NCBI GenBank assembly: GCA_045627385.1
Contig: JAZQNO010000020.1
Location: 11,475 to 75,474, forward strand
Reading direction: 5' to 3'
Length of the DNA: 64,000 nucleotides
DNA from: Bacteroidales bacterium
GTDB lineage: Bacteria > Bacteroidota > Bacteroidia > Bacteroidales > UBA1402
A program made the translations under genes and the position numbers. This document shows, piece after piece, positions 23,696 to 61,267 of this stretch. The notes beneath the pieces were generated by a model, which saw only the letters and a program-made list of their open reading frames with translations, did not search any database and was not told the origin of the DNA. How positions within the stretch are numbered: position 1 is the first letter of the stretch; every line of letters begins with the position of its first letter.

Positions 23696-23792
23696 AGTGT
23701 TGGGGAGATTGTTGTTCGCAAATATATTAATTTTTTTCTCGTTGCCGTCTTTTTCCGTATCTTTGTTGGATATTAATGACTGGATTTCATTT

Positions 23793-24218
23793 ATGGGAAG
23801 ACTGCTGGCCATTGACTACGGACTGAAACGCACGGGCATCGCCGTGAGCGATCCCCTGCAACTGATTGCAAACGGTCTGACGACTGTGGAAACCGCCCGG
23901 CTGATGGACTGGCTCAAGGACTATCTGTCGCGCGAGAAAGTCGACACGCTGGTGCTTGGCCTGCCCCGTCAGATGAGCGGCCGCGAGTCGGCCACGATGC
24001 CTTATATCAGGCAGTTCGCCGCTGAGTTTCAAAAGCGTTTTCCCGACTGTCCGGTGGCTTTTTCCGACGAGCGCTTCACTTCGGTGCTGGCACATCAGGC
24101 CATGCTCGAGGGCGGTCTGAAAAAGAAGGACCGCCAGAACAAACCTCTGGTGGACTGCATCAGCGCCACCATCATTTTGCAGGGCTACATGGAATCCAGG
24201 CTAAACCAACAGCGTTGA
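23793..24218 (+). CDS. ruvX: YqgF/RuvX family nuclease (pre-16S rRNA processing)
   Basis: LLAIDYGLKRTGIAVSD, DERFTS, VDCISATIILQGY; -7 element TATCTTTG at 23758-23765. Confidence 0.95.
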   Translation: MGRLLAIDYGLKRTGIAVSDPLQLIANGLTTVETARLMDWLKDYLSREKVDTLVLGLPRQMSGRESATMPYIRQFAAEFQKRFPDCPVAFSDERFTSVLAHQAMLEGGLKKKDRQNKPLVDCISATIILQGYMESRLNQQR

Positions 24219-46388: not shown

Positions 46389-46408
46389 TATATTTGCCCG
46401 CAAAATTA
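46389..46408. promoter_or_regulatory. Divergent sigma70 -7 elements: TATATTTG (plus, 46389-46396, fasciclin-Sus locus) and TAATTTTG (minus, 46401-46408, dnaG)
   Basis: TAnnTTTG matches in an AT-rich divergent gap. Confidence 0.6.
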
Positions 46409-46441: not shown

Positions 46442-49400
46442 ATGCATAAGTTCAGACAACTTCGAAAGACTGCTCTGGCATTGCTGGCCATCACGACGGT
46501 TCTGGTCTCTTGCAAGGACCCGTATTACTACGACGACCGTGAACCGGAATGGCTGGGAGCCAGCATCTATGATTACCTGGAGAAGAAGGGCGATTTCAAG
46601 TATTTCTTGAGAATCGTTGACACGACGGGCTATGCCGAGACGCTCAAGCGCACCGGCAGCAAGACGGTTTTCGTCTGCCCCGACTCCTGCTTCGAGTATT
46701 ATTTCAAACACAATGAAGACGGCATCACCTGCTTCGAAGATTTCACCCTTTCCGATTTGAAGGGCATCAAGGAGTACGCCATCGTCAACGATGCAAACCT
46801 CATAGAACTGCTTTCGTATGACGTGGGCTATGTGGAGGGCGAAGTGATGCGTCGTCCGACCGCATTGGATCCTCTTGACAAACTGGTTAAGGAATCTCCC
46901 TCGCAGCTGCCTGATTTCAACCCTTATTATGCGCGTTTCCTGAACAGCGGCATCTGGGTGCTCAACGACAACACCAGTCCGCGTCTGGTCCAGTTCTTCG
47001 AATCGCAGATGAAGATGAAGAACATCACCAATGAGGATTTCAGCATTCTTTTCAACGGTCAGACCCGTGAAGACGGAGATGCTCACCTCTTTGACCGGAA
47101 GGTCGTCGAAAGGGACATCACCTGCAAAAACGGCTATATTCACGTGCTCGACGGTCTGCTCCGTCCGCAACCCAACATGGCCGAGTTTATCCGGGACAAT
47201 GGAAAACTGACTGTGTTCAACCGCTTGTTGGACCGCTACAACGCGCCTTACCCAAACGTGTCTGTTACCGAGCAGTACCGCACTTTGGCTGGCAACGAGT
47301 CATTCGCCGACACGATTTACGTTCGCCGTTATTTCTCCAAACGGAGTGCCGGCGAAATAGCCAATTCCACCGATCCTCAGGGCGAACCGGTTCTGGATGC
47401 GGAACTCCTGCTGCTGGATCCCAACTGGAATGCCTATGCCTACACCAACAGCGGCAAGTCCGACATGGCCGTCATGTTCGTACCCAGCGACTCGGCCATG
47501 AACGCCTATTTCTCGCCTTCCGGAACCGGATCTTACCTACATGAGCGCTATCAGTACTGGGACAGCGTGCCCAACGACATCGCCGCTCTCTTCCTGAACG
47601 CCCACATGAAGTACTCGTTCCTGGCTTCGCTTCCAAGCAAGATGACCGAGGCCACCAACGGTCTGAACGGCATCAAGAACGAGGCCGGCGACTACATGTA
47701 CATCAGCAAGAACGATATCGAAAGCGCCAAAGTGACCACCAACGGCGTGGTTTATGTGACCAAGAAGGTGTATCCTCCCATCGAATATGCCTCTGTGATG
47801 GCCCCTATTCTGGTCAGCGAAAACACCAAGGTGTTCAACTACGCTCTGAAGAACCTCACCTTCGACATCTATCTGAAGTCGATGGAAACGGTCTACAGTC
47901 AGGGCTACGTTCCGCCATACACATTTATCGTCCCCACCGACGAGTATCTCAACCATTATGTGTACATTCCTTCGTTGCCGCGCGCCAATGCCAACAAGGA
48001 GATGATTTCGATTTATTATGACGATGCCGTCAGCAAGATTGCCTGCGATCGCTTCTCCTACGATGTCAATACCGGTGTGCTCGGTGCCAACAAAGGTTAT
48101 GAAGAACGTTTTACACAGACAGACATCACCCATGCTCTTTTGAACGAGATGATGGACTACCACATCATTGTCGGCGAAATCACTCCTGAGCAGAAATATT
48201 ATATTACAAAAGGTAAGTGCTTCGTCCGTATCGACATGAAGGACGAGAACAACATTGACTTCCTCGGCGGTGGCAATATCGAACAGAACGAAATGTGGTC
48301 CTCTTCGGGCGACAAGTTCGACGGTGACTACACGGCACGTCTTAACCGGAAACTTACTTTCAGCAACGGAAAGACCTATTTCGTGGACCATCCCCTCCAG
48401 CATTCCAGCCGTTCCATCCTGACGACTTTGAAACTCTACAGCGACCTGTCTGAGTTCGCCGACTGCCTGAACGACGCCGGTCTGACGGTTTCTGTCAAGA
48501 ACGGCTACAGTGTGCTTGGCGACGGAAATATCTCTTTCCTGTCCGATTATCATTATTCGGTCTATGCGCCCAGCAATGCGGCCATGGCTCGGGCCTATGC
48601 CGCCGGCCTTCCTTCGGGTGACCAGATTGAAGCTGAAACCGATACCGACATCAAGGCAGCAAAGAAAGAAAAGCTGGCCAACTTCATCCGCTATCATTTC
48701 CAGGACAACTCGGTCTTTATCGAAGGCGAAAAAATTGACAATGTCCGTTATGAGTCGTCCGACAAGAACGATGTTACCGGAAAGTTCTTTTCGATTCAGG
48801 TCACTCAGGACGGACAGAAGATTTCGCTGGTTCCCGCGGTGTCCGACGTCAACGGTACCGAAGCCTATTTCCGCAGTCCGATTGTGATTGACAAGACTGC
48901 CAGTGAAACGGCCGGAACTCCTTATAATGTCATGACCCGCGACTACTTCTTCAAGGGCACCGACAACAAGAACGTCAACGCCAGCCTCAACAACTATTCG
49001 GCCCGCGCTGTCGTCCACGAAATCGACGATTATCTCTATGTGGTGAAAGCGCCTGTCGTTTCGCGTATCTCCACCGACTTCGAAACCACCACCTCCTCTG
49101 CTGTCGGTTTGATTGTCACCATCTCCGACAACGGTGACGGCGTGGCTTACGACAATCACGTCATCACCGACCGCGGTGTCATCTGGGGTTGGACTCCCGA
49201 CCTGAACGTCAACAACTGCGAAGGCAAGGTCTCCTTCACTTCGACCAAGGACGTCGGCGAAATCAAGGGCAAACTCACTTATCCTGCAGCCGATGTCTGC
49301 GCAAGTCATGGAAATGTCATTTATGTACGAGCCTATGCCGAAAGCAAATGGTGCACCGATATGAGGACATATCTGGTCGAACGCGCTCATGGCGAGGGTG

Positions 49401-49471
49401 ATGACCATTTGGTAACCTATGGTTCCACAGTCTTGGGCATCAATACGCTAACCGGTAAAAAAGCTGAATGA
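46442..49471 (+). CDS. Lipoprotein with four fasciclin (FAS1) domains and a C-terminal FN3-like domain
   Basis: Lipobox LVSC; H1/H2 pairs TVFVCPD/NGYIHVLD, VMFVPSD/NGVVYVT, TFIVPTD/NGKTYFVD, SVYAPSN/VVHEID; C-terminal DRGVIW...YVRAYAE. Confidence 0.82.
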   Translation: MHKFRQLRKTALALLAITTVLVSCKDPYYYDDREPEWLGASIYDYLEKKGDFKYFLRIVDTTGYAETLKRTGSKTVFVCPDSCFEYYFKHNEDGITCFEDFTLSDLKGIKEYAIVNDANLIELLSYDVGYVEGEVMRRPTALDPLDKLVKESPSQLPDFNPYYARFLNSGIWVLNDNTSPRLVQFFESQMKMKNITNEDFSILFNGQTREDGDAHLFDRKVVERDITCKNGYIHVLDGLLRPQPNMAEFIRDNGKLTVFNRLLDRYNAPYPNVSVTEQYRTLAGNESFADTIYVRRYFSKRSAGEIANSTDPQGEPVLDAELLLLDPNWNAYAYTNSGKSDMAVMFVPSDSAMNAYFSPSGTGSYLHERYQYWDSVPNDIAALFLNAHMKYSFLASLPSKMTEATNGLNGIKNEAGDYMYISKNDIESAKVTTNGVVYVTKKVYPPIEYASVMAPILVSENTKVFNYALKNLTFDIYLKSMETVYSQGYVPPYTFIVPTDEYLNHYVYIPSLPRANANKEMISIYYDDAVSKIACDRFSYDVNTGVLGANKGYEERFTQTDITHALLNEMMDYHIIVGEITPEQKYYITKGKCFVRIDMKDENNIDFLGGGNIEQNEMWSSSGDKFDGDYTARLNRKLTFSNGKTYFVDHPLQHSSRSILTTLKLYSDLSEFADCLNDAGLTVSVKNGYSVLGDGNISFLSDYHYSVYAPSNAAMARAYAAGLPSGDQIEAETDTDIKAAKKEKLANFIRYHFQDNSVFIEGEKIDNVRYESSDKNDVTGKFFSIQVTQDGQKISLVPAVSDVNGTEAYFRSPIVIDKTASETAGTPYNVMTRDYFFKGTDNKNVNASLNNYSARAVVHEIDDYLYVVKAPVVSRISTDFETTTSSAVGLIVTISDNGDGVAYDNHVITDRGVIWGWTPDLNVNNCEGKVSFTSTKDVGEIKGKLTYPAADVCASHGNVIYVRAYAESKWCTDMRTYLVERAHGEGDDHLVTYGSTVLGINTLTGKKAE

Positions 49472-52400
49472 TTATGAAGAATATTCTTAAATATGGCAGC
49501 ACACTGCTGCTGGCATTCCTTTTGAGTGCCCCGTCTTTCGCCCAGACGGTCGTCCGTGGTAAAGTTACGGCAGCTGTCGACGGTGAGAGTCTGATTTCGG
49601 TTACCGTCATGGAGGTCGATGCGAACAACCGTGTCGTCGGCGTCACCATCACCAACTACGACGGTGAATACGCCATTCAGGTGAACAATACCGAAAATAT
49701 GCTGCGGTTCAAATATCTGGGCTTCGAAACCAAGGATGTGGCCATCGGCAGCAAAAAGGTCCTCAACGTGGTGATGGAGGAACAGTCCCACACGCTTCAG
49801 GATGCCGTGGTCACCGCCAAGGCCACACAGTCGGACGGACGTTTCGTCATTCCGGAGCGTGAGGTCTCCATGGCTATGCAGAAGATCAGTGCGGAAGAGT
49901 TCGACGGCATCCAAGTGGCATCTATCGACGATGCCCTACAGGGCCGAATCGCCGGTTTGGACATTGTGAACGTTTCGGGTGAGCCCGGTGCCGGTATGTC
50001 GATGCGTATCCGCGGCACCACCACGCTGGGCGCCGATGCCGACGGCAACCGTCTGACTTCGGCCGAGCCTCTGATTGTCATCAACGACATCATCTACGAT
50101 ACGGAGATTGACGAAGGTTTCGATTTCGCCACTGCCAACCAGGACCAGTATGCACAGTTGATCAACGTCAACCCCGACGATATCGAATCGATCACCGTCC
50201 TGAAGGATGCCGCTTCTACGGCCATCTGGGGTTCGAAAGGTGCCAACGGTGTGTTGATGATCACCACCAAGAAGGGTACACCCGGTCCGACTCGAGTCAA
50301 CTATTCCTACTCGTTGACCCGTGCCCGTCAGCCGAAGGGTCTGCATATGCTCAACGGTGACAACTACACCATGCTGATGAAGCAGGCCTATTACAACCCT
50401 CAGTTGGAAAATGCTTCTTCCAATATTCCTGAACTCAACTACGACGATACCTTCACTGAGTACGAAAACTACAACAACAATACGGACTGGCGCAAGGAAA
50501 TCAGCCAGATAGGTTATACCCATGACCACAACGTCACCATTTCTGGTGGCGGTGACAAGGTGACTTTCCGCGTATCGGCCGCTTACTACACGCAGACCGG
50601 TACCGTCATCGGACAGCGCTTGGACCGTCTGAGTCTCCGTTCGAACATCAATTATCAGGTATCCGACCGTATCCGCTTCAGTTCGGATTTCTCCTACACC
50701 TTCTCCGACAACGACAAGAACTACGAGGATCTGTTGAACAACGCCTATAACAAGATGCCTAACCTGAGTGTCTACGCTCAGGATTGGGATGGCAACGATA
50801 CGGACGTCTACTATCACATCCGTTCGGATTCGCAGTTGAACGATGCTCAGAAGAATATGAGCAACCCGGTGGCTGTGGGTTATCTGGCCACCAACAACAA
50901 CAAAAGCTACCGCACTTCGCCCAACTTCAACCTCGACTACGAACTTCTCGACCGCAGCCGTACCGAAGGCTCGCTGAAAGCCTCTGTGAACGTGTCGTTC
51001 GACCTGAACAGTTCTCAGGTCACTTCTTACTTCCCGAAGGAAGCGGCCAACAAGATTTGGTCTGACCAGTCGGTCAACGTCTCCGAACGTGGCGAGAGCG
51101 AAAGCATGAGTCTGAACGGACGTGCCCAGCTGACTTGGCGTCCCGTCTTCAACAACCGAGACCACTCGTTGCAAGTGCTCGGACGTTTCAACATCGGAAC
51201 CAGCAACAACGGCTCTCTGTCGTCGTCCATCTACGGCCTGCCTTCTTCTAAACTGAAATCATCGACCTTGGACGCCGCCACGAAATCGATGTCGAACAAC
51301 TACAGCGATTCTCGCTCGCTGCAGGGCGCCGGTTCGTTCCACTATGCCTACAAGGGCCGCTATGTGTTCGACACGACGCTGTCGGTGAACGGAAGTTCGA
51401 AATTCGGTAAGAGCAAACGTTTCGGTACCTTCCCCGGCTTCTCCCTGAAGTGGATTGTCAGCGACGAGCCTTTCTTCGATTTTGTCCGCGATTACATCTC
51501 CGATATGGGTATCCGCTACAGTTTCGGCATCAACGGTAACGAGCCTGGCGGAGGTACGCTGCAGTACAGCCGTTACGGAAAGTTTGCCGAAGGCTACATC
51601 GACATGACAGCCATGTACCCGATCAACATGCGTCTGAACAATCTGCAGTGGGAAAAGACCACACAGCATAACATCGGTGCAGACTTCGATCTGGTAGACG
51701 GTAAGTTTGGCATCGACTACAACTACTATTTCAAGCACACGACCAACATGCTGTTCAGCGGTCTGGGCGTGTCTTCGTCGAGCGGTTTCAAGACGCTGGA
51801 TTACTCGAATGTGGGTGTGATGAACAACCAGGGTTGGGAGTTCAACGGCCACATCCGCGACCTTGTCCGGGTGAACCGTTTCAGCATGGACCTCAACTTC
51901 AACTTTTCGAACAACCGCAACACCATCATCGAACTGACCGACGAGGTGCTGACCCGCTACAACAAGGACTACGATTTCAAGAACGGTTCGTATCTGTCGC
52001 GTGTCCAGATCGGCAACTCAGTAGGCTCCATCTACGGCTTCGAATATTTGGGTGTCTACGAGAACGGCAAGTATGATCCGGCCAATCCTTCGGCCACCTG
52101 TCCGATTGCCCGCGACAAGGACGGCAATGCCATTCTCGATGCCAACGGCAACACCAAACCGATGATGTTCGCTTACGGAAACACGGCCGCTTACGAATTC
52201 AAGGCCGGTGACGCCATGTACCGCGACATCAACCACGACGGTTCCATCGACGAATTGGACATCGTTTATCTGGGCAACTCTCAGGCAAAGGTGAACGGTG
52301 GTTTCGGTACGAATTTCCGCTGGGGACAGATTTCGATGTCGGCCTTCTTCAACTTCCGTGCTGGTAACAAGGTGGTCAATTCGGCCCGTATGAATGCCGA

Positions 52401-52773
52401 AAACATGTACACCAACAACAACCAGAGCGTTGCTGTGAACTGGCGCTGGCGCAAGGAAGGCGACCAGACACTCATGCCTCGAGCTCTGTATAACTACGGT
52501 TACAACTGGCTGGCCAGTGACCGTTATGTGGAAGATGCCTCCTTCCTGCGCTTCAAATACCTCACCTTCAACTATTCGGTTCCTCGTGAGGTGTTGAAAC
52601 CCTATCATCTGAATTCTCTGAGCATTTATCTTTCCATTCAGAACGTCGCTGTCCTCACCCGTTACACCGGTGTGGATCCTGAAGTCGGTTACAACACCAC
52701 TCAGGTGGCATCCGACGGAAGCAAGACGCCTCGTTCGAAAGATTTCCTGCTCCGTTTAAGACTCGGTTTCTAA
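49468..52773 (+). CDS. SusC/RagA-like TonB-dependent transporter 1
   Basis: CarboxypepD-like N-domain, ALQGRIAGL plug, NPDDIESITVLKDAAS..IWGSKGANGV, LQWEKT, YVEDASFLR, C-terminal F. Confidence 0.96.
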   Translation: MIMKNILKYGSTLLLAFLLSAPSFAQTVVRGKVTAAVDGESLISVTVMEVDANNRVVGVTITNYDGEYAIQVNNTENMLRFKYLGFETKDVAIGSKKVLNVVMEEQSHTLQDAVVTAKATQSDGRFVIPEREVSMAMQKISAEEFDGIQVASIDDALQGRIAGLDIVNVSGEPGAGMSMRIRGTTTLGADADGNRLTSAEPLIVINDIIYDTEIDEGFDFATANQDQYAQLINVNPDDIESITVLKDAASTAIWGSKGANGVLMITTKKGTPGPTRVNYSYSLTRARQPKGLHMLNGDNYTMLMKQAYYNPQLENASSNIPELNYDDTFTEYENYNNNTDWRKEISQIGYTHDHNVTISGGGDKVTFRVSAAYYTQTGTVIGQRLDRLSLRSNINYQVSDRIRFSSDFSYTFSDNDKNYEDLLNNAYNKMPNLSVYAQDWDGNDTDVYYHIRSDSQLNDAQKNMSNPVAVGYLATNNNKSYRTSPNFNLDYELLDRSRTEGSLKASVNVSFDLNSSQVTSYFPKEAANKIWSDQSVNVSERGESESMSLNGRAQLTWRPVFNNRDHSLQVLGRFNIGTSNNGSLSSSIYGLPSSKLKSSTLDAATKSMSNNYSDSRSLQGAGSFHYAYKGRYVFDTTLSVNGSSKFGKSKRFGTFPGFSLKWIVSDEPFFDFVRDYISDMGIRYSFGINGNEPGGGTLQYSRYGKFAEGYIDMTAMYPINMRLNNLQWEKTTQHNIGADFDLVDGKFGIDYNYYFKHTTNMLFSGLGVSSSSGFKTLDYSNVGVMNNQGWEFNGHIRDLVRVNRFSMDLNFNFSNNRNTIIELTDEVLTRYNKDYDFKNGSYLSRVQIGNSVGSIYGFEYLGVYENGKYDPANPSATCPIARDKDGNAILDANGNTKPMMFAYGNTAAYEFKAGDAMYRDINHDGSIDELDIVYLGNSQAKVNGGFGTNFRWGQISMSAFFNFRAGNKVVNSARMNAENMYTNNNQSVAVNWRWRKEGDQTLMPRALYNYGYNWLASDRYVEDASFLRFKYLTFNYSVPREVLKPYHLNSLSIYLSIQNVAVLTRYTGVDPEVGYNTTQVASDGSKTPRSKDFLLRLRLGF

Positions 52774-52785
52774 ATTGATGGAATT

Positions 52786-54423
52786 ATGAAAAGAATACTC
52801 AATAAAATCCAGATTGTCCTGATGTCGTCGGTGATGGCACTCAGTTTCAATTCCTGTGGTGACTGGTTGGAAATCCTGCCGGAAGGCGAGACTCTGCTTG
52901 AAGATTACTGGCAGAATGCCTCTGATGTGCAGGGCGTTGTGGCATCCTGCTATCGTTCCATGCTTGAACCCGCTTGCATTGCACGAATGATTCTTTGGGG
53001 TGAAGTTCGCTCTGACAACATCAATCCCGGTTCAAAAGTCACGACCGACCAGAAATATCTCTTGGAAGCCAACATCCTTCCTACCAACGTTTATTGCGAC
53101 TGGTCAACTCTGTATACGGTCATCAACTACTGCAATACGGTGCTGCATTTCGCACCACAGGTGCAGGATGTAGATAAAAACTATTCCCCACGACAAATGA
53201 ATGCCCATCGGGCCGAAGCTCAGGCTATCCGCGCCTTGTGCTATTTCTATCTGGTGCGCGCTTTCCGTGATGTCCCTTTCAACACAGAGCCGACCATCGA
53301 CGATGACAAGGAATTCGACCTGCCGGCCACTCCGGGTTCGATAATCCTTGACTATATGATTGCCGATCTGAAGGAAGCCAAGCAGAATGCCCAGTCTTCC
53401 TACACGGGCAGCAACGCACTTGCCCACAACAAGGGCCGTTTCAACCGACAGAGCATCCGAGCCTTGTTGGCTGACATTTATCTGTGGAAGGGTATGTATA
53501 AGGAGTGTTTGGACGAGTGCAACGAGTTCCTCGATTACAATGCGTCTCTTTCCCGTACTTCCCGTAATTCGGGTTACAGTTTGGTCGATCCGGATTTCTT
53601 TTTTGATGAAGTGTTCTCCCGCGGCAATTCTTCTGAAAGTATTTTCGAACTTCAGTTCGAATCAGGCACCGAACTTTCCAATTCCAGCATTTCGTCTTTC
53701 TATGGCAATAGCAAGGATGCCGGTCAGCTTTCCGCATCGGCATCGGCCATCCGCAGTTGGGCATTCCCCATGGAAGACGATGATATCCGCAGCAATCTTT
53801 TCATCGGATCTGTCCGCGACGAACTCTACAACGAAATAACCAAATATTCCTGCAGCTCCTGCATCGATAACGGACTCGGCGGTTACACGTTCTCATATCG
53901 CACCAAGAGTGACTGCAACTGGATTGTCTACCGTCTGTCGGACATCTATCTGATTCGTGCCGAGGCTTTGGTCGAACTGGCCAAAGGCAAGGAAACTCAG
54001 GATGTCCAGGTCTGGGAGAAACTTTTGCGCGAGTCAATCAGCATGGTCAACAAGACCTGGTTCCGTTCCCATCCTACCAACCGATTGTCAGACACTCTTT
54101 CGTTCGATGAATATGGCAGTTATTACTCTGTCAGAGATTTGGTGTTCATGGAGCGTCAGCGCGAATTCCTCTTTGAGGGAAAACGCTGGTTCGATTTGGT
54201 CCGAAAGGCTGAACACGACAACGATCCCACATCGGTATGGGAAACGGTAGACCACAAGTATGACAGTCGTTTCTACAATACTACCGAAAATCTGATGAAG
54301 AGCAAGTATTCCTCTATGGATGCATTGTATCTGCCTGTCAGTGAGGATGAAATCCTGGCCAATGATTCTATCCAGCAGAATCCGTTCTACCGGACCAACG
54401 AAACTTCTTCCAAAAACAATTAA
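52786..54423 (+). CDS. SusD/RagB-like lipoprotein 1
   Basis: Lipobox FNSC; YTVINYCN, RALCYFYLVRAF.DVP, YRLSDIYL..AEA, ERQREFLFEGKRWFDLVR. Confidence 0.95.
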   Translation: MKRILNKIQIVLMSSVMALSFNSCGDWLEILPEGETLLEDYWQNASDVQGVVASCYRSMLEPACIARMILWGEVRSDNINPGSKVTTDQKYLLEANILPTNVYCDWSTLYTVINYCNTVLHFAPQVQDVDKNYSPRQMNAHRAEAQAIRALCYFYLVRAFRDVPFNTEPTIDDDKEFDLPATPGSIILDYMIADLKEAKQNAQSSYTGSNALAHNKGRFNRQSIRALLADIYLWKGMYKECLDECNEFLDYNASLSRTSRNSGYSLVDPDFFFDEVFSRGNSSESIFELQFESGTELSNSSISSFYGNSKDAGQLSASASAIRSWAFPMEDDDIRSNLFIGSVRDELYNEITKYSCSSCIDNGLGGYTFSYRTKSDCNWIVYRLSDIYLIRAEALVELAKGKETQDVQVWEKLLRESISMVNKTWFRSHPTNRLSDTLSFDEYGSYYSVRDLVFMERQREFLFEGKRWFDLVRKAEHDNDPTSVWETVDHKYDSRFYNTTENLMKSKYSSMDALYLPVSEDEILANDSIQQNPFYRTNETSSKNN

Positions 54424-54435
54424 TCAAAAACAGAT

Positions 54436-56109
54436 ATGACAGACAAACTGAAACTGTTGTGGATGGTTCCGCTGCTCACGCTGTTCGCCTCATGTACGGA
54501 CAAAATGTGGGATGAGCACTACCAGTCCTATGTGGACGAAATCCTGGATCAGACCCTGATGGATGCCATCAACGAGCGTCCCGAACTGAGCATTTTTTCC
54601 GGAATGCTGAAATCGACCGGATACGATTCCATCCTTTCGCGTTCCCAGAGCTATACCGTCTGGGCTCCTGTCAACGCATCTCTGACGAATCTCAAGTACA
54701 GCGATGACGAACTGAAGACCTTCGTCGAAAACCATATCACCCGTTATCCGCTGACCTGCACATCCATTACGGAAGATGACAAACCTGTGAGTATGCTGAA
54801 CCACAAGAAAATCCGTTTCTCGCGTTCCGGTCCCGGGTATACTTTCGGACAGCAGACCGTCATCGAAAACGACATTACGGTCAACAATGGCATTCTGCAG
54901 GTGCTGGATCATTACGAGCCTTACGTGCGAAACATTTGGGAATTCCTGCAGTATACGCCCGGTTTTGAGAATTATTTCAGATTCCTGAATTCTTATGAAG
55001 AGTACGAGTTCAACGAAGCTGCCAGTACTTTCCTGACTTTCGACGAGAACGGACAGTCGGTTTATGATTCTATTTTTTGGTACAATAACGGGTTGCTATC
55101 CGATATTGGCAGTTTTAAAGACGAAGACAGTTCCTATACGCTGCTGGCTCCAAAAAATGCCGCATGGGACGAAATGTTCGACAGTATCAAATCGTATTTC
55201 GTCTATTCCAACAGTGTCATTCCCCGTCTGGAGACCGGAATGACAATCGGTCCGGACTACAAGGAAGACAACTATGCCGATTCAATGCAGTATCAGTCAA
55301 CCGTATCGGTCATGGCATTGAAAATGTCTTTCCGTGGAGTGCGTACTCCTGAAGACATAGCCGCAGCAACCTATATGAAACCGAATATCTGTGAGGTTTA
55401 CAATTTGGTAGACGAGGAAGACTACATCATCAAGAATCCTGCCGAATTCTTTTCCGATTCCCGCGACACGACTGTCAGCAACGGTGTCGTCTATATGGCT
55501 GACCATCTTCATTTCTCTCCTTCGGACTGGTGCAAGACCGTCAAAGTGGAAGCCGAAAGCAATTCTGGAGCGTTCACTCTTGATCCTGCCGAAATGAGGG
55601 CCCGCAATACCTACAGCCGTCAGACCCGGTCTTATCCCTGGATTTCGGACCAGATTTCAAACAAGGGTTTTCTGGAAGTCGTTCCTGTGAGTTCGACGGA
55701 CAAGGCGTATGCCACTTTCTTTGTCTACGATCTTCAGAGTACCGCCTACAATATTTATGTGGTACTGGTACCTGCCACCTATTACGTTCGCGAGCCTGAA
55801 GCTGAGGATTCGGCCAAATGTCTGCCCAACAAGATGCAGTTTACGCTGGCATATCCTACAGGAGACGGCCTTCGTGAGGAAATCAACTACAACAAGTTCA
55901 CCTACACGAACGATCCTTTCAAGGTGGATACCGTGCTTGTCACGCGTGATGCCGACGGCAATCCTTCGCCGGTCACTTTCCCGTATTGCACTTGTTTTGA
56001 GATTCCTTCGGTCACTTTCAAGGTCTATAATAATGTGAGTTCCAAGGAAACCAAGCGCTATTCGCGCAATCTGCTGATCGACTGCGTGATTTTCGAACCT
56101 GCCCTTTAA
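54436..56109 (+). CDS. Lipoprotein with two FAS1 domains and a C-terminal beta-sandwich
   Basis: Lipobox FASC; YTVWAPVN/NGILQVLD and YTLLAPKN/NGVVYMAD. Confidence 0.85.
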   Translation: MTDKLKLLWMVPLLTLFASCTDKMWDEHYQSYVDEILDQTLMDAINERPELSIFSGMLKSTGYDSILSRSQSYTVWAPVNASLTNLKYSDDELKTFVENHITRYPLTCTSITEDDKPVSMLNHKKIRFSRSGPGYTFGQQTVIENDITVNNGILQVLDHYEPYVRNIWEFLQYTPGFENYFRFLNSYEEYEFNEAASTFLTFDENGQSVYDSIFWYNNGLLSDIGSFKDEDSSYTLLAPKNAAWDEMFDSIKSYFVYSNSVIPRLETGMTIGPDYKEDNYADSMQYQSTVSVMALKMSFRGVRTPEDIAAATYMKPNICEVYNLVDEEDYIIKNPAEFFSDSRDTTVSNGVVYMADHLHFSPSDWCKTVKVEAESNSGAFTLDPAEMRARNTYSRQTRSYPWISDQISNKGFLEVVPVSSTDKAYATFFVYDLQSTAYNIYVVLVPATYYVREPEAEDSAKCLPNKMQFTLAYPTGDGLREEINYNKFTYTNDPFKVDTVLVTRDADGNPSPVTFPYCTCFEIPSVTFKVYNNVSSKETKRYSRNLLIDCVIFEPAL

Positions 56110-56121
56110 TCCGAAACTGCA

Positions 56122-59100
56122 ATGAGTATGAAAAAGTATATGAAAAGTGTTCTGTTGACAGCTGTAATGGCGCTGGGCATGCTCTCTTTTGCGGCTTACG
56201 CGCAGGATAACGGCGATATGGTCAACATCAAGGGTCGGGTGTTCAACTCGGCTACCGGAGATCCTGTCGACGGTGCCAAGGTGAGCATGGGCACTGCCTT
56301 TGTCTACACCCTCGATGATGGTACCTTTGTCTTGAAAGTTAAAAATCCCACGTCCATACTTCGGGTCAGTGCCAATGGATTCGACAGAGGCGATGTGGAA
56401 TGGCGCGGTCGTGACAGCGTGATGGTCTATCTTTCGGCTGCCGAGTTCTCCACTCCTATGGGTTATCGTCCTCAGGTGGATCCTGCCGATATGACGCTTC
56501 TGTCGCGCGGTGCCGCTACCAAGACTGTCGAAGATCTCGACCTGCTTTCGCCGATTGAGACCGTCGAGAGTGTTTTGCTCGACCGTATGGGCGATATCCG
56601 TATCACACGCCGTTCCGGAAAGGAGGGCATCGGTGCCAATATGTATGTCCGCGGTTTCAATTCGATCAACTCGCACTCCCAGCCGCTGATCATTGTGGAC
56701 GGCATCATCACGGAAACTTATCTGGATCTGGAGTCCATCCACGACGGATTCAAAGCCAACTACCTGCTCAACATCGATTTGAAGGATATCGAAAACATTA
56801 CGGTCATCAAAGACGCCACCTCGCTCTACGGTGCCAAGGCTGCCAACGGTGTCATCCTTATCGAGACGGTCCGCGGTCATGACCCTGTCACCCGCATTCT
56901 GGCCAACGCTTCCGCCGGAATCACTCTTCCATATCAGACGCTTCCCATGCTCGACGCCGAGCAGAGCCGCGTGCTGGCCAGCGAAATGTTTGCCGGTACT
57001 TCTTACACTATGGCAGAGGTGGACAATATGGCCCTTTTCAACGATGATCCCAACTATCTGTATTACAACCAGTATCACAACGAAACGGATTGGAGTGACT
57101 GGGTGTTCCAGAATGCTTTCAGCCAGAGCTACGGTGCCCGCGCCACCGGTGGTGACCAGGTCGGTATGTATGCTCTGTCTGTCGGTTTCCTGACCAATCA
57201 AGGTATTCTGGACGGCAATACGATGAACCATCTGAATTTCAGATTCAATTCGGATATCAGCATTTCCAAGACCATCAATCTGCCGGTCGATTTCGCCGTC
57301 AGTTCGGTGCAGTACAACCTCAACAACGACGGTGTCAGCGCTACGGCGCCCGCTTATCAGGCAGCCATCAAGTCTCCGATGTTCTATCCGTATTCGTATT
57401 CGCGTGTAAAGAACGATAACGGCATTTATCCTGTCACTTCGGAAATGGAAGATTATGACATCCTGCTGGTCAACAATCCTGTCTCCATCCTGAACTTGGC
57501 AGAGCAGTCGAGCAAGCAGACCACATTCACGGCATCTGCCCGTCCGAAATGGGATATCAACCAGCACATGTCGCTGAAAGGAACGGCAGCCTATGCCCTC
57601 AACAAATTCTACGAATCTTATTTCACTCCGATTCTGGGTGTGGCTCCGCGTGTCGAATTCTCTTCGGGCGGTTATACCCAAAGATACCTCAACGAGGCTA
57701 AGTCTCAGAGTATGCGTGACATCCGCAATACCTTCGAACTGACTTATGATTACCACAACAGTTTCGGCGGCAATTCGCTCAAGGCGATGGCCGGATGGCG
57801 CTATATGAAGGAATTCCGCGTATGGGATCTGGTCGGCGGTTACAATACCGGTGAAGACAACCAGACTTTCGTAAAGGCCGACCTGTCTTACAAATTCATG
57901 GACGGAGAAGACCGCACGGTCAAGAATCTGTCTTATTTCGCCAATGCGGACTGGAACTATCTCGAAAAGTATTACTTGAATGCCACGGTCTCGATGAACG
58001 CCTCGTCGCGTTTCGGCAAGAATATCGACGGCGCATTGAACCTCTTCGGTGTCAACTGGGCCGTATTTCCTTCCATGACGGCAGCTTGGCTGGTTTCGGC
58101 CGAAGACTTTATGGCAGACCTCAACATGCTCGACATGTTAAAGCTTCGTGCCAGCTACGGTCTGACCGGCAATGACGACATCGAGGATTATCTGTCGTAC
58201 GCCTACTTCGTTTCCTCCAACTATTATGGCAACCTGAACGGTCTTGTACTGGGCAATCTGGGCAATACCAGACTGAAGTGGGAAACGACGACCAAGGCCA
58301 ACTTCGGTGTCGATCTGTCGCTCTTCCGCAACCGTTTTTCGGTGTCTGCCGACGTGTTCAGCCACCGCACTAAAGATTTGCTGGCTCTGAAGGCACTGAA
58401 TCCGATTGCCGGTTTCGATTCCTACTGGGCCAACGACGGCGAGCTCACCAACAAAGGTTACGATGTGTCTGCCAACCTGCGTCTGATTGATACGAAGAAT
58501 TTCCGTTGGGAAGCCTCCGTATCGGCTGCCCATTACAAGAATGAGATTGTCAGCCTGGCCAACGGCGATTATCTGACCGACCTGTATGACGGACAGATTC
58601 TGACGGCTGTCGGCGGTCCTATCGGCCAGTTCTACGGCTTGAAGGCCATCAAGGTGCTGAAGAACGATGCAGAAGCATCCACAGCCAACTATCTGGGTAA
58701 CGATTATGTCTATCTGGTGGGTGAAGATACTTCGAAGAAGCCCTTTACAGCCGGAAACATGTTGTTTGAAGACGTCAACAAAGACGGCTTTATCGACGAG
58801 CACGACAAGCAGGTCATCGGCGATCCGAATCCCGACCTGACGGGTATGCTCAGTTCCAAGATTTCCTACAAGGGTGTCAGCCTCACCGCCATGTTCAACT
58901 ATTCGCTTGGCAACGATGTCTACAACTACTATCGCCGTCAGCTGGAATCCTTGAGCGGTTTCGACAATCAGACCATTGCGACTCTTAACCGCTGGAGATC
59001 GGAAAAGCAACAGACCGTGACCATGCCGAAGGCGACCTACGGAGATCCCATGGGCAACTCCACTTTCTCCAGCCGTTGGATTGAGGACGGCTCCTTCCTG

Positions 59101-59322
59101 CGTCTGAGCAGTCTGAAACTCGCATGGGATGTGCCCTACAAGATTCCCAACATCAACGGACTCACCATTTGGGCCGCCGCCAACAATCTGGCGCTTTGGA
59201 CCCACTATTTGGGCCTGGATCCCGAAACGTCCATTTCGACCAATGTCCTCTGCCAGGGTATTGATGCCGGTCTGCAGCCTCAGTGCCAGTCGTTTATGTT
59301 TGGCCTTAAGTTCAATCTCTAA
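56122..59322 (+). CDS. SusC/RagA-like TonB-dependent transporter 2
   Basis: Signal peptide, RGFNS...QPLIIVDG plug, DIENITVIKDA..YGAKAANGV, LKWETT, WIEDGSFLRL, KFNL end. Confidence 0.95.
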   Translation: MSMKKYMKSVLLTAVMALGMLSFAAYAQDNGDMVNIKGRVFNSATGDPVDGAKVSMGTAFVYTLDDGTFVLKVKNPTSILRVSANGFDRGDVEWRGRDSVMVYLSAAEFSTPMGYRPQVDPADMTLLSRGAATKTVEDLDLLSPIETVESVLLDRMGDIRITRRSGKEGIGANMYVRGFNSINSHSQPLIIVDGIITETYLDLESIHDGFKANYLLNIDLKDIENITVIKDATSLYGAKAANGVILIETVRGHDPVTRILANASAGITLPYQTLPMLDAEQSRVLASEMFAGTSYTMAEVDNMALFNDDPNYLYYNQYHNETDWSDWVFQNAFSQSYGARATGGDQVGMYALSVGFLTNQGILDGNTMNHLNFRFNSDISISKTINLPVDFAVSSVQYNLNNDGVSATAPAYQAAIKSPMFYPYSYSRVKNDNGIYPVTSEMEDYDILLVNNPVSILNLAEQSSKQTTFTASARPKWDINQHMSLKGTAAYALNKFYESYFTPILGVAPRVEFSSGGYTQRYLNEAKSQSMRDIRNTFELTYDYHNSFGGNSLKAMAGWRYMKEFRVWDLVGGYNTGEDNQTFVKADLSYKFMDGEDRTVKNLSYFANADWNYLEKYYLNATVSMNASSRFGKNIDGALNLFGVNWAVFPSMTAAWLVSAEDFMADLNMLDMLKLRASYGLTGNDDIEDYLSYAYFVSSNYYGNLNGLVLGNLGNTRLKWETTTKANFGVDLSLFRNRFSVSADVFSHRTKDLLALKALNPIAGFDSYWANDGELTNKGYDVSANLRLIDTKNFRWEASVSAAHYKNEIVSLANGDYLTDLYDGQILTAVGGPIGQFYGLKAIKVLKNDAEASTANYLGNDYVYLVGEDTSKKPFTAGNMLFEDVNKDGFIDEHDKQVIGDPNPDLTGMLSSKISYKGVSLTAMFNYSLGNDVYNYYRRQLESLSGFDNQTIATLNRWRSEKQQTVTMPKATYGDPMGNSTFSSRWIEDGSFLRLSSLKLAWDVPYKIPNINGLTIWAAANNLALWTHYLGLDPETSISTNVLCQGIDAGLQPQCQSFMFGLKFNL

Positions 59323-59340
59323 TCGCAAAAGAACAAGCTT

Positions 59341-61134
59341 ATGAAACGCTTTAATGTATATGTATGCCTGTTGGCTGTATTAGCTCCGGCATTCGTTTCC
59401 TGCGAAAAGATGCTCGAGGTGGAGTCGAACCGCTATCTGATGGCGAAAGACAACAAACTCGACAACCCCAACGATTCTCTTTACTCCATTGCCGGCATTT
59501 TGAACAAACTGCAGACATTGGGTGACGACTATGTGATTTTGGGTGAGTTGCGTGCCGATATGATGGACGTCACTCACAATGCCGACATCAACCTGCGTGA
59601 AGTGTCGGAACTGATGAATCTGTCGGAAGACAGCTACTGGAACAACGTCAATGACTACTATGTGGTCATCAATCACTGCAATTATCTGATTCAGAATATG
59701 GATACATCGGTGATGGTGAACGGTGCCAAACCGCTTACCGAGGACTGGGCCGCCGCCAAGGCCATCCGTGCCTGGGTCTATATGCAGTTGGCTTTGAACT
59801 ATGGTGAGGCTTATTATTTCGTTTCGCCCATTCTGACAATCGAAGATGTGAGCAAAACCAGAACCAAGCTGAACCGGAGTGAACTTTTCGACCAGCTGAT
59901 TCTGGATCTGAAGGACATTGAAGGCATCAAGATGCCCGATTACGGTAGCATGGGAGGAGTGCAATCCAGTCTGGTGTTCCCGTCGGTCAATTATATGCTC
60001 GGTGAATTGTACCTCTGGCAGAATGAATATGAGAATGCCGCCAGAGTCTTCTATCAGGATATTTTCGACAACCGCCGCACCGTCAATTCTACCACGGCCA
60101 GTTACGTAACGAGTGAGACGGATGCCTACGACACCTATTTTTCCATCACCGATAAATGGTCGACTTCTCTGCAGGCCAATACCGCAGGTGGAGATGTCAT
60201 ATTTGCCATTCCATACTATTACTCGTCTTTGTACGGTCATTTCGAGCAGTGTCCCTTATACCGTCTGACCTATGCCGACTACAAACTGTTTCCGTCGGAA
60301 CGTGCTGTCGACTGGTTCGAAAGTCAGACTTATACCGGATACAACCGCCGTGGTGGCGGTTCGACTGACAACGATGACACTTCCGAAGATGAGGGTATTC
60401 AAGAAGGTTCCAATGACAACTCAATCGTAGAGTTCTCCGGTGACCTGCGCGGCCGTTGGGGCAGTTACGGCCGTTTGTCCGGCCAGATTGTCATTAATGG
60501 TGTCGGCAGTTCGTCGGCCGTTACGGACAACTCGGATGAACTTTTGGATGAAGAGTTCCAGATTACCAAGGAACCGGATGGCTCGCCTTACATCAGAATT
60601 TACAGCAGCGATATCATCTATGTGCAACGTGCGTCTGTTGAATATCTGCGTTTTGCCGAGGCTGTCAACCGCTATGGTTGTCCTTCGCTGGCCCTTGCTG
60701 TGATCAATTATGGTCTTTCCAACAACATTCTGGCCGACTCCACCAAGGTCAACCCCTCCGAATTGGGCCAAGACTTCACGGACTGGAGTTCGGACCGTTT
60801 CAGCCGGAATATCGGTACCCGTTCACGCGGTCAAGGCGTTGCCAAACCGGTTTCTCTTGAAGATTATGCTGAACTTGACACTATTCCGACCCGCGCAGAC
60901 TCCATCAAATGGGTTGAGAAACTCATTCTGGAAGAATGTGCTTTCGAATCGGCTTTCGAGGGTACCCGTTTTCAGGACCTGATGCGTTTCACCCTGCATG
61001 AGCCTAGTGCCAACTATATCGGCAAGGCCATCGGCCTGAAACACGGTGAGGCAGAGAGTGACGAAACCGGAGCGTATCATCTCTGGCTGAAAGACCAGAA
61101 GAACTGGTACCTGCCGTACCCTGATTACGAATAA
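59341..61134 (+). CDS. SusD/RagB-like lipoprotein 2
   Basis: Lipobox FVSC; YVVINHCNY, IRAWVYMQLALNYG, YLRFAEAVN, EECAFESAFEGTRFQDLMR. Confidence 0.9.
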   Translation: MKRFNVYVCLLAVLAPAFVSCEKMLEVESNRYLMAKDNKLDNPNDSLYSIAGILNKLQTLGDDYVILGELRADMMDVTHNADINLREVSELMNLSEDSYWNNVNDYYVVINHCNYLIQNMDTSVMVNGAKPLTEDWAAAKAIRAWVYMQLALNYGEAYYFVSPILTIEDVSKTRTKLNRSELFDQLILDLKDIEGIKMPDYGSMGGVQSSLVFPSVNYMLGELYLWQNEYENAARVFYQDIFDNRRTVNSTTASYVTSETDAYDTYFSITDKWSTSLQANTAGGDVIFAIPYYYSSLYGHFEQCPLYRLTYADYKLFPSERAVDWFESQTYTGYNRRGGGSTDNDDTSEDEGIQEGSNDNSIVEFSGDLRGRWGSYGRLSGQIVINGVGSSSAVTDNSDELLDEEFQITKEPDGSPYIRIYSSDIIYVQRASVEYLRFAEAVNRYGCPSLALAVINYGLSNNILADSTKVNPSELGQDFTDWSSDRFSRNIGTRSRGQGVAKPVSLEDYAELDTIPTRADSIKWVEKLILEECAFESAFEGTRFQDLMRFTLHEPSANYIGKAIGLKHGEAESDETGAYHLWLKDQKNWYLPYPDYE

Positions 61135-61153
61135 TTATTTAAAACTCTGATAG

Positions 61154-61192
61154 AGAGGGGGTTCCCGAAATTGCGGGATTCCCCTCTTTTTT
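61154..61192 (+). terminator. Intrinsic terminator closing the fasciclin-SusCD locus
   Basis: AGAGGGGGTTCCCG-AAATTG-CGGGATTCCCCTCT followed by a T-run. Confidence 0.85.
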
Positions 61193-61267
61193 GTGCCTAA
61201 AGGTCTGGGAAAAATGAGGTATTTTGAGTACCTTCGCGCACAAAAGACAACAATTTTTTTCCCCTAT

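Follow-up and report, generated by a model that had tools for sequence, protein, structure and literature searches.

What is the role of a locus that holds two SusC/SusD pairs and two fasciclin-domain (FAS1) lipoproteins, and neither an enzyme nor a regulator? One such locus is found in the window, the whole 64,000-nucleotide stretch of DNA analysed here, which comes from a genome of 2.1 Mb (the host genome below).

Organization of the Locus

The six genes lie on one strand between dnaG and the V-ATPase operon, in the order FasL, SusC1, SusD1, FasB, SusC2, SusD2; all coordinates given for them and their signals are on the plus strand. FasL (46442..49471) is a surface lipoprotein of 1009 aa with the lipobox LVSC and a Pfam FAS1 match. 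It is followed by SusC1 (49468..52773), a SusC/RagA TonB-dependent transporter, and SusD1 (52786..54423), a SusD-family lipoprotein with the lipobox FNSC. FasB (54436..56109), called Fas2 in the original prediction, is a lipoprotein of 557 aa consisting of two FAS1 domains and a C-terminal jelly-roll. A second SusC/RagA transporter, SusC2 (56122..59322), and the divergent SusD-family lipoprotein SusD2 (59341..61134, lipobox FVSC) complete the row. The domains of all six products are as expected, and so are their signal or lipoprotein sequences.

The FasL and SusC1 frames meet in an ATGA overlap, and the later gaps are 12, 12, 12 and 18 nt. Layout, gaps and flanks are thus as the original prediction had described them. 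It had also named one upstream TAnnTTTG element and one closing terminator, and both are found. The element, TATATTTG (46389..46396), is of the Bacteroidota -7 type, lies 46 nt upstream of the FasL start, and is the sole plus-strand TAnnTTTG match within the dnaG–FasL intergenic region. Its T-A-n-n-T-T-T-G is invariant across five orthologous intergenic regions, including those of four related genomes. Folding places an intrinsic terminator, a G+C-rich hairpin followed by a U-run, at approximately 61149..61195, between SusD2 and the V-ATPase genes, where it ends the operon; the hairpin has −26.1 kcal/mol (z = −3.89), and none of 200 shuffles reaches this stability. Together, the six genes form one operon; its expression may be constitutive, as the original prediction suggested.

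On the upstream flank, dnaG is on the minus strand and ends at 46287, and ftsH and cdsA lie further upstream in a region where no sigma factor was found. The local lack of enzymes and regulators is confirmed. CAZyme, peptidase and regulator families in Pfam and NCBIfam gave zero matches for the six proteins, there is no CAZyme between dnaG and the V-ATPase genes, and the cassette flanks hold no HTCS, SusR or ECF/anti-sigma gene. The closest CAZyme is a GH2 ~7 kb upstream, with housekeeping genes in between.

The SusC/SusD Pairs

The SusC proteins match TIGR04056 at 700 bits (SusC1) and 600 bits (SusC2) against a cut-off of 368, and PF07980 and PF14322 match both SusD proteins, SusD2 weakly. 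The two adjacent pairs are as strongly diverged as had been claimed, with 25% identity between SusC1 and SusC2 and 24% over 238 aa between SusD1 and SusD2. SusC1 is composed of an NTE, a TonB-box-like QDAVVTA (residues 111–117, after the NTE), a plug and a barrel, and the motif (D/E)xVV(T/S)A is kept across the SusC1 clade. SusC2 has an NTE, plug and barrel and is without a canonical TonB box. Its 48 orthologues include none with the strict pattern and six with a loose one, which we read as NTE strands; the B. thetaiotaomicron SusC2 orthologue is also without the motif. The canonical motif is present in all five non-cassette SusC proteins of the host genome. In BT1763, it was deletion of the NTE, not of the TonB box, that abolished growth (bioRxiv 10.64898/2026.09.16.752182); therefore, the missing DEVVV motif in SusC2 is no proof of TonB independence.

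The FAS1 Lipoproteins

The original prediction counted four FAS1 domains in FasL and two in FasB. Alignment and models uphold these counts, but the description omitted a C-terminal extension of FasL and the jelly-roll of FasB. The true start of FasL is MHKFRQLRK...LVSC, which carries the lipobox. Pfam FAS1 (PF02469) matches FasL at E 4e-16 and FasB at E 1e-16, in FasL within modules 1 and 4. Four modules are conserved in the FasL family alignment, with invariant NG at 230, 434 and 642 and with H859. Periostin and TGFBIp, which have four FAS1 domains, align with the FasL model across ~850 columns (E 1e-19). For the FAS1 fold, structure matches to these two proteins range from E 1e-11 to 1e-19. 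The FasL extension, of ~140 aa, is confined to the host genus and a sister genus and is conserved in orthologues with the motif DNGDGV...ITxRGxxWS. It has no significant Pfam or PDB match, the sole PDB match being at E 0.007.

The best database match of FasB is only 33% identical. Its model (pLDDT 82.8) contains two FAS1 domains by structural matches and a C-terminal jelly-roll that resembles CBM22 and other xylan-binding modules in a structure search.

The Seven-Gene Cassette

The locus belongs to a family of more than 60 loci across Bacteroidota with the order FasL-SusC1-SusD1-FasA-FasB-SusC2-SusD2. The order is strict in ~55 complete loci from Bacteroidales, Prolixibacteraceae, Chitinophagaceae, Pelobium and Cesiribacteraceae, which are often adjoined by HTCS, PL11, GH28 or GH2 genes. 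The FasB position is occupied in all cassettes. In the SusC tree, the SusC1 and SusC2 clades are sisters whose internal branching agrees, and so the cassette has been inherited as a unit. SusD1, SusD2, FasL and FasB match only homologues in the same position; among paralogues, SusD1 finds only those at the SusD1 position and SusD2 only those at the SusD2 position. The window copy departs from the fixed order in having six of the seven genes, correctly ordered, with FasA missing. It falls in a distinct clade, which we call W-type, and the remaining members of that clade have FasA. With its six genes, the block is derived from an ancient cassette of seven, and it is not an orphan system.

Throughout Bacteroidota, the seven-gene cassette supplies the transport core of PULs of the rhamnogalacturonan type, among them the RG-I PUL of B. 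thetaiotaomicron. In that organism, it occupies 5,472,207–5,487,852 of a 6,260,361-bp contig, with GH28/GH2 genes on one side and PL11 and an HTCS on the other; the FasB protein there is Q8A054_BACTN ('Fasciclin domain protein'). Gene order and published descriptions lead us to infer that this cassette corresponds to BT4163–BT4169. For the RG-I PUL, PMC8002723, summarising Luis et al. 2018, lists SusC/D pairs BT4164/65 and BT4168/69 and an RG-I-binding SGBP, BT4167. The core has the same succession of a long FAS1 lipoprotein, SusC1, SusD1, FAS1 lipoprotein(s), SusC2 and SusD2, and a TonB box on SusC1 with none on SusC2. Each window protein has its positional counterpart as its best match in the core, at 20–35% identity. 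FasB sits at the position of BT4167 and is the positional homologue of a BT4167-type SGBP. The original prediction knew of no substrate for FAS1-containing Sus loci; this is not borne out, as the same architecture, with BT4167 between the pairs, is the transport core of the RG-I PUL (PMC8002723). The PUL is largely the homologous locus of known substrate and like architecture that had been named as contrary evidence, with the identity as low as stated.

The differences are that the window copy is without FasA and without adjoining GH, PL and HTCS genes, that its FasL has the additional C-terminal domain, and that the B. thetaiotaomicron cassette groups not with the W-type but with a cassette on contig C7 of the host genome. 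The two substrates are probably not identical.

The Split in the Host Genome and Its Relatives

The host genome has three further cassettes, all with seven genes and inside canonical pectin PULs, two of the three with an HTCS. On contig C26, the neighbours are an HTCS, a PL11 RG lyase, GH28 and GH2; on C32, they are an HTCS, two CE8, a GH28 and DUF4957/DUF5123; and on C7, they are GDSL and AXE1 esterases, with no HTCS within the surveyed flanks. Cassettes hold eight of the 13 SusC genes of this genome. With paralogous and orthologous cassettes in pectin PULs, the link to pectin that was originally suggested is plausible.

The only W-type FasA of the host genome is encoded elsewhere (C13:19426-21492) and is 31–34% identical to W-type FasA proteins with E ~1e-100. 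It heads an operon that has no transporter and encodes GH78, GH140-like/GH78, GH127, GH2, GH106, an esterase and DUF5703. GH140 and GH127 are RG-II activities (PMC13501991), and the enzymes proposed for the W-type system in the host genome are RG-II-like GHs. The complementary absence, together with subfamily membership, suggests that the C13 operon holds the FasA counterpart of the window cassette, and the two are presumably co-regulated.

The genus shares this split layout: relatives keep the cassette between dnaG and the V-ATPase genes as well as the FasA-GH operon. The six-gene form is also found in G001, G006, G008, G011 and G010. In G010 (4.1 Mb), it is part of a contiguous PUL with genes for GH88, an HTCS, an ECF sigma factor, two lyases, GH97, CotH, a FasA-like protein and GH106. 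The host genome has no orthologue of this cassette-linked HTCS, and no dedicated regulator was found there. The enzyme neighbours of W-type cassettes vary between genomes (a lyase and GH88 in locus L001, GH43 and a beta-helix protein in L003, and lyases and GH97 in G010); therefore, the substrate may differ between lineages. The original prediction had treated the enzyme-free state as a property of the system. This does not agree with a FasA at the head of a GH operon elsewhere and a contiguous PUL with an HTCS in a relative. By these sequence comparisons, the missing local enzymes reflect a lineage-specific split.

Could the locus instead be the non-functional remnant of a decaying PUL that lost its enzymes and regulator? 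FasA, enzymes and HTCS are locally missing, and the lipoproteins are highly diverged, as the best match of FasB indicates. However, all six frames are intact in the window, the complete cassette, in the same synteny, is intact in all four relatives examined (G001, G006, G008, G011), FasB orthologues are open frames in eight same-genus genomes, and the promoter box is conserved. Identity to orthologues falls from SusC1 (61–66%) through SusC2 and SusD (39–43% for SusD2) to Fas, a gradient that fits exposed surface proteins and not pseudogenes. Within the genus, this cassette has also been retained more widely than the canonical PUL of the C26 type. We consider decay hardly credible.

Function and Substrate

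Given the gene content, domain architecture, family membership, conservation, synteny and complementary split, we think it probable that the operon is the outer-membrane capture-and-import half of a pectin-class PUL, importing pectic oligosaccharides, with the enzymes and FasA provided in trans. FasL, with its four FAS1 domains, and FasB, with two FAS1 domains and a distal CBM-like jelly-roll, would be the surface glycan-binding lipoproteins, and SusD1 and SusD2 would be the lids on the TonB-dependent barrels SusC1 and SusC2. In the host genus, the PUL would have been split, with the cassette fixed between dnaG and V-ATPase and FasA heading the C13 enzyme operon. The imported material would be oligosaccharides of RG-II-like or RG-I-like side chains and backbone, to be dismantled in the periplasm by the enzymes encoded in trans. 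The function is most likely uptake of a pectic glycan rich in rhamnose and uronic acid, whose exact identity, like the surface assembly, we infer.

Import of peptides or some other nutrient that is not a glycan, with no enzyme in the operon, has precedents in RagAB of Porphyromonas gingivalis and in BT2261-2264, whose operons also lack enzymes and encode extra lipoproteins beside SusC/D (PMC11817032). The lack of any CAZyme or regulator in or beside the locus and its housekeeping neighbours are in keeping with such a role. However, those systems import peptides through a single pair, have no FAS1 or CBM-like lipoproteins, and are without homologous cassettes embedded in CAZyme-rich PULs. Where a RagAB-type system has a single pair, peptide cargo and a proteolytic context, this one has two pairs, a CBM-like jelly-roll at the end of FasB, and no peptidases adjoining it. 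Every examined homologous cassette with neighbours sits among glycan-active genes, and the FasA partner heads a GH operon. Such import is very improbable.

Assembly of the Two Pairs

A mechanistic parallel to pectic import by this operon is in the levan (BT1760-63) and dextran utilisomes of B. thetaiotaomicron, where SusC/SusD are likewise joined by surface lipoproteins that associate stably, capture glycan and feed the transporter (PMC7618045). By analogy, the same pedal-bin lid, plug and TonB mechanism is expected here. The utilisomes differ in having a single SusC/D pair as a C2D2 homodimer, SGBPs with Ig-like and CBM domains in place of FAS1, and a surface endo-enzyme that is in the complex and encoded in the same locus (PMC7618045). 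The original prediction took C2D2 dimers to be the rule for SusCD; this is no longer general, as Bt SusCD has been described as monomeric, 1:1 (bioRxiv 10.64898/2026.09.16.752182).

It has been proposed that SusC1D1 and SusC2D2 form one heteromeric double-barrel machine in which the FAS1 lipoproteins act as a bridge or cap and SusC2 is energised via SusC1. This reading concerns assembly and is compatible with pectic import. The pairs are never apart in the more than 60 loci, with congruent SusC1 and SusC2 trees; SusC1 keeps the TonB box, whose canonical form SusC2 lacks, in B. thetaiotaomicron too; the five non-cassette SusC proteins all have it; and utilisomes with additional lipoproteins are established (PMC7618045). 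On the other hand, the SusC dimers known so far are homodimers besides the 1:1 Bt SusCD, SusC2 keeps the NTE on which growth depended in BT1763 (both bioRxiv 10.64898/2026.09.16.752182), and two transporters for two oligosaccharide classes would explain the co-inheritance equally well. We regard the hetero-oligomer as unlikely. Its extension to the whole family, in which the cassette, including the B. thetaiotaomicron RG-I core, is a distinct hetero-oligomeric utilisome on FAS1 arrays, with a SusC1 that bears the TonB box and an obligately co-inherited SusC2 that does not, is a shade more doubtful. If true, gating or energisation of SusC2 would come from SusC1 or from the NTE of SusC2 alone, and the window copy would show that such a machine can persist by itself next to housekeeping genes and serve enzymes that are encoded in trans.

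We give about even chances to two independent importers, each taking up its own class of fragments from one pectic polymer. They would leave unexplained both the systematic loss of the canonical TonB box in SusC2 and the permanent linkage of the pairs, but they accord with the deep, ancient divergence between the pairs, with purifying selection on each (the frames are intact in all relatives), and with a Fas gene directly upstream of SusC in each half. Tandem pairs in the homogalacturonan and RG-I PULs of B. thetaiotaomicron are described as two transporter complexes (PMC8002723). The homogalacturonan PUL (BT4113/14, BT4121/22) resembles the window locus in having two pairs per locus for one polymer (PMC8002723) and differs in that no FAS1 lipoproteins in a fixed interleaved order are known from it. 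The fragment classes might be, for example, backbone and side-chain or long and short oligosaccharides, and the Fas proteins could then serve as shared or pair-specific SGBPs.

Gene Content and Signals of the Window Operon

The block at 46442–61134 of the window consists of six ORFs, all in the same direction. It begins with FasL (46442–49471, plus strand), a 1009-aa FAS1 lipoprotein with the lipobox LVSC. FasL shares an ATGA overlap with SusC1 (49468–52773, plus strand; TIGR04056 at 700 bits). SusD1 (52786–54423), the second FAS1 lipoprotein FasB (54436–56109), SusC2 (56122–59322; TIGR04056 at 600 bits) and SusD2 (59341–61134) follow on the same strand, with gaps after the FasL/SusC1 overlap of 12, 12, 12 and 18 nt. 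Pfam and NCBIfam find Fasciclin in FasL and FasB and SusD families in SusD1 and SusD2, and none of the six products matches an enzyme or regulator family. On the minus strand upstream are dnaG (ending at 46287), ftsH and cdsA, and downstream is the V-ATPase operon. The gene order, coordinates, dnaG and V-ATPase flanks and lack of an internal enzyme or regulator are all as originally predicted. Two small ORFs at 39–41 kb of the window are not sigma factors. Long antisense ORFs of up to 699 aa lie on the minus strand of the cassette genes (47537–49408, 55657–57756 and 49936–51174); these are taken as composition artefacts of the coding strand, which is about 52% G+C.

The single promoter element and single closing terminator of the original prediction were both recovered. 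The promoter box, TATATTTG at 46389–46396 (plus strand), is the sole plus-strand TAnnTTTG match in the dnaG–FasL intergenic region. Since it is also invariant across the orthologous intergenic regions of four relatives, we take it as a real −7 promoter box. The operon ends at about 61149–61195 (plus strand) in a G+C-rich hairpin and U-run (−26.1 kcal/mol, z = −3.9). An ECF03-type promoter (TAAACC-N15-xGTC), a type reported elsewhere in the window, was not seen by eye upstream of FasL. A housekeeping-type −7 box with no linked sensor is compatible with constitutive or trans regulation of the cassette. Two genes resembling HTCS sensor/regulators, at C32:75260–79564 and C23:~65000–68740 on other contigs of the genome, lie away from any Fas cassette and are candidate trans regulators of the window cassette or of the one on contig C7.

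The Fas Lipoproteins

FasL has four FAS1 repeats with invariant NG or H end-motifs in the family alignment. In a structural comparison, its model (pLDDT 67.8) can be aligned with periostin and TGFBIp, both four-FAS1 proteins, across some 850 columns (E 1e-19). Modules 2 and 3, which a home-made FAS1 HMM did not detect by sequence, are shown by both the model and the family alignment, and the four modules predicted for this protein therefore stand. The two predicted for FasB are supported by its structure model (pLDDT 82.8, pTM 0.77), in which two FAS1 domains match TGFBIp, periostin and single FAS1 structures. The C-terminal jelly-roll of the same model matches CBM22 and other xylan-binding modules; this domain has no Pfam or NCBIfam family. 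The Fas proteins would act as surface glycan-binding proteins (SGBPs), with FAS1 stalks and, on FasB, a CBM-like head. A PDB sequence search returned no Bacteroidota Fas protein and no solved structure.

FasL also carries a C-terminal extension of about 140 aa (49052–49468, plus strand), modeled at low confidence. The extension, with the motif DNGDGV...ITxRGxxWS, is kept in the orthologues of the same genus and the sister genus and is missing from all more distant homologues in the family alignment. It has no significant Pfam, NCBIfam or PDB match, the only PDB match being at E 0.007. It occurs in lineages whose cassette lacks the third Fas lipoprotein, FasA; the relative G010 has neither the extension nor a cassette FasA.

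Distribution and Descent of the Cassette

The names of the closest database matches suggest that the source organism, an uncultured gut or rumen Bacteroidales bacterium, is from a Paludibacteraceae-related lineage. Its genome (2.13 Mb, 98% complete) has FAS1 genes at five loci. Three of these, on contigs C26, C7 and C32, are paralogous cassettes of seven genes (FasL-SusC1-SusD1-FasA-FasB-SusC2-SusD2), and each lies among pectin-active genes. The neighbours on C26 are an HTCS, a PL11 rhamnogalacturonan lyase, GH28 and GH2; those on C32 are an HTCS, two CE8 pectinesterases, GH28 and a DUF4957/DUF5123 protein; and those on C7 are GDSL (CE12-like) and AXE1 esterases, with no HTCS in the surveyed flanks. 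Together with the window copy, these cassettes hold 8 of the 13 SusC-like genes of the genome.

When species-representative genomes were scanned with a FasA profile, 62 loci came up, in Paludibacter, Dysgonomonadaceae, Bacteroides luti, B. reticulotermitis and others within Bacteroidales, and beyond it in Prolixibacteraceae, Chitinophagaceae, Pelobium and Cesiribacteraceae. Every scanned locus long enough to judge has the seven genes in one order, and HTCS, PL11, GH28 or GH2 genes often adjoin them. In the SusC tree, all SusC1 proteins form one clade and all SusC2 proteins form its sister clade. Inside both, the topologies are congruent and resolve the same three groups: C7/C32-type, W-type (which includes the window copy) and C26-type. 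We conclude that the tandem arose once and has been inherited since as a unit. A chance arrangement of the window genes is rejected.

Adjoining the C26 cassette and its HTCS is a 974-aa exported protein with no Pfam match (C26:97170–100094, L015:11170–14094 in the compared locus, minus strand). Homologues border the cassette at no fewer than 10 further loci (L025, L032, L035, L036, L038, L039, L041, L043, L050 and L059), and the protein could be a pectin-active enzyme or binding protein not described before.

A Counterpart in the Rhamnogalacturonan I Locus of B. thetaiotaomicron

A homologue search from the B. luti FasA did not have B. thetaiotaomicron (B. theta) among its matches. A genus-wide genome scan found a cassette there at 5,472,207–5,487,852 of a 6,260,361-bp contig, with GH28 and GH2 upstream and PL11 and an HTCS downstream. 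Exact-sequence look-up identified its three Fas proteins. The FasB-type is Q8A054_BACTN, "Fasciclin domain protein"; the FasA-type is Q8A055_BACTN, a DUF5108 lipoprotein; and the FasL-type is named "fasciclin domain-containing protein". Other public names for the FasA-type protein (L112:13433–15178) are "DUF5108 domain-containing protein" or "Lipoprotein", and the FasB-type is mostly "hypothetical protein". With such names, text searches for "fasciclin" miss the cassette in model organisms. Our literature search found no paper on fasciclin domains in Sus systems.

The RG-I polysaccharide utilisation locus (PUL) of B. theta has two SusC/D complexes, BT4164/BT4165 and BT4168/BT4169, and RG-I is bound by the SGBP BT4167 (reviewed in PMC8002723). 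In the B. theta DNA, two genes lie between the SusC/D pairs. These two genes and the published tags of the pairs would give BT4163–BT4169 as FasL, SusC1, SusD1, FasA, FasB, SusC2 and SusD2, and from this order we infer that BT4167 is the FasB-type protein. The original prediction, which knew of no substrate assigned to FAS1-containing Sus loci, thus does not hold as stated: tandem loci of this kind do have one, with the caveat that the BT tags rest on gene order. The window cassette is homologous to the core of the RG-I PUL, and is in kind a Sus-like PUL transport core as already known.

The Missing FasA and a Complementary Enzyme Operon

The window copy is a W-type cassette whose nearest database relatives are only about 33% identical in FasB. 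These relatives, L001, L003, L083 and L084, have the full seven genes, and their flanks include an HTCS, Laminin_G_3/T9SS proteins, a PF05426-type lyase, GH88/105, an MFS transporter, GH43 and a beta-helix protein. The window cassette is without FasA, and the single W-type FasA of the genome is at C13:19426–21492. It aligns over its full length with W-type FasA proteins at 31–34% identity (E ~1e-100), the same divergence as that of the window FasB from W-type FasB proteins.

On C13, FasA heads an operon of co-directional genes, none of them a SusC/D. After it come GH78, a GH140-like apiosidase fused to GH78, GH127, a C1-like peptidase, an unknown protein, GH2, GH106, a SASA-type esterase and a DUF5703 protein. 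Thus, the window cassette has transporters without enzymes, the C13 operon has enzymes and the missing FasA without a transporter, and the two loci are complementary. Rhamnosidases of families GH78 and GH106 take part in RG-II breakdown. GH140 (BT1012) and GH127 (BT1003) are RG-II activities as well, as stated in PMC13501991. The C1-like peptidase (C13:30716–32107, L087:2716–4107; PF03051, E 1e-143), between GH127 and the unknown gene, has no counterpart at that place in the corresponding operon of the relative G001, as judged with a reference set lacking a C1 peptidase query.

We consider that the window block is probably one half of a split pectin-class PUL, the half for capture and import. 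Our best guess for the substrate is a rhamnose- and uronic-acid-rich pectic glycan, and a peptide-import reading of the cassette is disfavoured. Taken on its own, the C13 operon would point to an RG-II-like substrate; we hold this narrower assignment to be rather doubtful because the W-type neighbours differ between genomes.

Conservation of the Split in Relatives

The order dnaG, six-gene cassette, V-ATPase is shared by G001, G006 and G008 of the same genus and by G011 of the sister genus. Identities of these four to the window orthologues fall from VatB (91–96%), VatA (83–91%) and FtsH (77%) through SusC1 (61–66%), DnaG (57–66%) and SusC2 (49–53%) to SusD1 (45–49%), FasL (42–50%), SusD2 (39–43%) and FasB (34–39%). 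Such a gradient would be expected of surface-exposed proteins evolving under diversifying pressure, and not of a decaying remnant or pseudogene. Six of six cassette ORFs are intact in all four relatives, and decay is disfavoured.

In G001, an operon of FasA-GH78-GH140-GH78-GH127-unknown-GH2-GH106-DUF5703 is on the same contig as the cassette, 85 kb away. G010, a relative with a 4.1-Mb genome, has the six-gene cassette inside a contiguous canonical PUL, in the order GH88/105, HTCS, ECF sigma factor, cassette, T9SS-tailed protein, heparinase-II/III-like lyase, GH97, PF05426 lyase with CBM6 and DUF4979, CotH, FasA-like lipoprotein and GH106. Its HTCS, lyases and CotH have no orthologues in the window genome. 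The enzyme-free cassette is kept more widely in the genus than the canonical C26-type PUL. By these sequence comparisons, the split between enzymes and transporter appears to be old and maintained.

The cassette can thus part from its enzymes and regulator yet persist across a genus, and the window copy will escape PUL predictors that demand neighbouring CAZymes. The missing FasA travels with the enzymes, which offers a genetic means of matching the parts of a split locus.

The TonB Box of SusC2

The TonB box of SusC, DEVVV (D105–V109), follows the N-terminal extension (NTE) (bioRxiv 10.64898/2026.09.16.752182; PMC7618045). In SusC1 orthologues, l-x-E-V-x-V-x-A is conserved after the NTE (QDAVVTA in the window, AVDEVVVSA in B. 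theta), and five of five non-cassette SusC proteins of the genome have DE(V/I)VMVGYG-type motifs. Among 48 SusC2 orthologues, none has the strict TonB-box pattern, and the six that match a loose pattern are read as matching in NTE strands. The motif is absent from the B. theta orthologue as well. At this site, some W-type SusC2 proteins carry a deletion, which is short in the window protein and in L001 takes out the whole NTE–plug linker. The NTE, plug and barrel of SusC2 are all kept. The missing TonB box is a real, conserved peculiarity of SusC2; it is not proof of TonB independence.

On whether SusC1D1 and SusC2D2 form separate complexes, our judgement is evenly balanced; a single hetero-complex of the two seems unlikely. 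Since SusC2 lacks a canonical TonB box in the tractable B. theta as well, the question of hetero-oligomers and energisation is directly testable there.

FAS1-built SGBPs and the fixed tandem-SusCD cassette are widespread, as seen in the more than 60 loci, the SusC complement of this genome (8 of 13) and the B. theta RG-I PUL. The window locus is a moderate variation on this known system. What is new is that the uncoupling from enzymes and regulator is conserved, that FasA has moved to an enzyme operon, that FasL has an extra domain and that a canonical TonB box is absent from SusC2 cassette-wide.

Other Observations in the Window

A 1556-aa ORF at 19142–23812 (minus strand) matches no Pfam family at E <= 0.001. 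At 26890–31091, a CotH-family protein follows a PL1 pectate lyase. A different CotH protein is found inside the W-type PUL of G010 (L105:13730–16153), beside the FasA-like gene, and such proteins may be a repeated feature of pectin-type PULs in this family.
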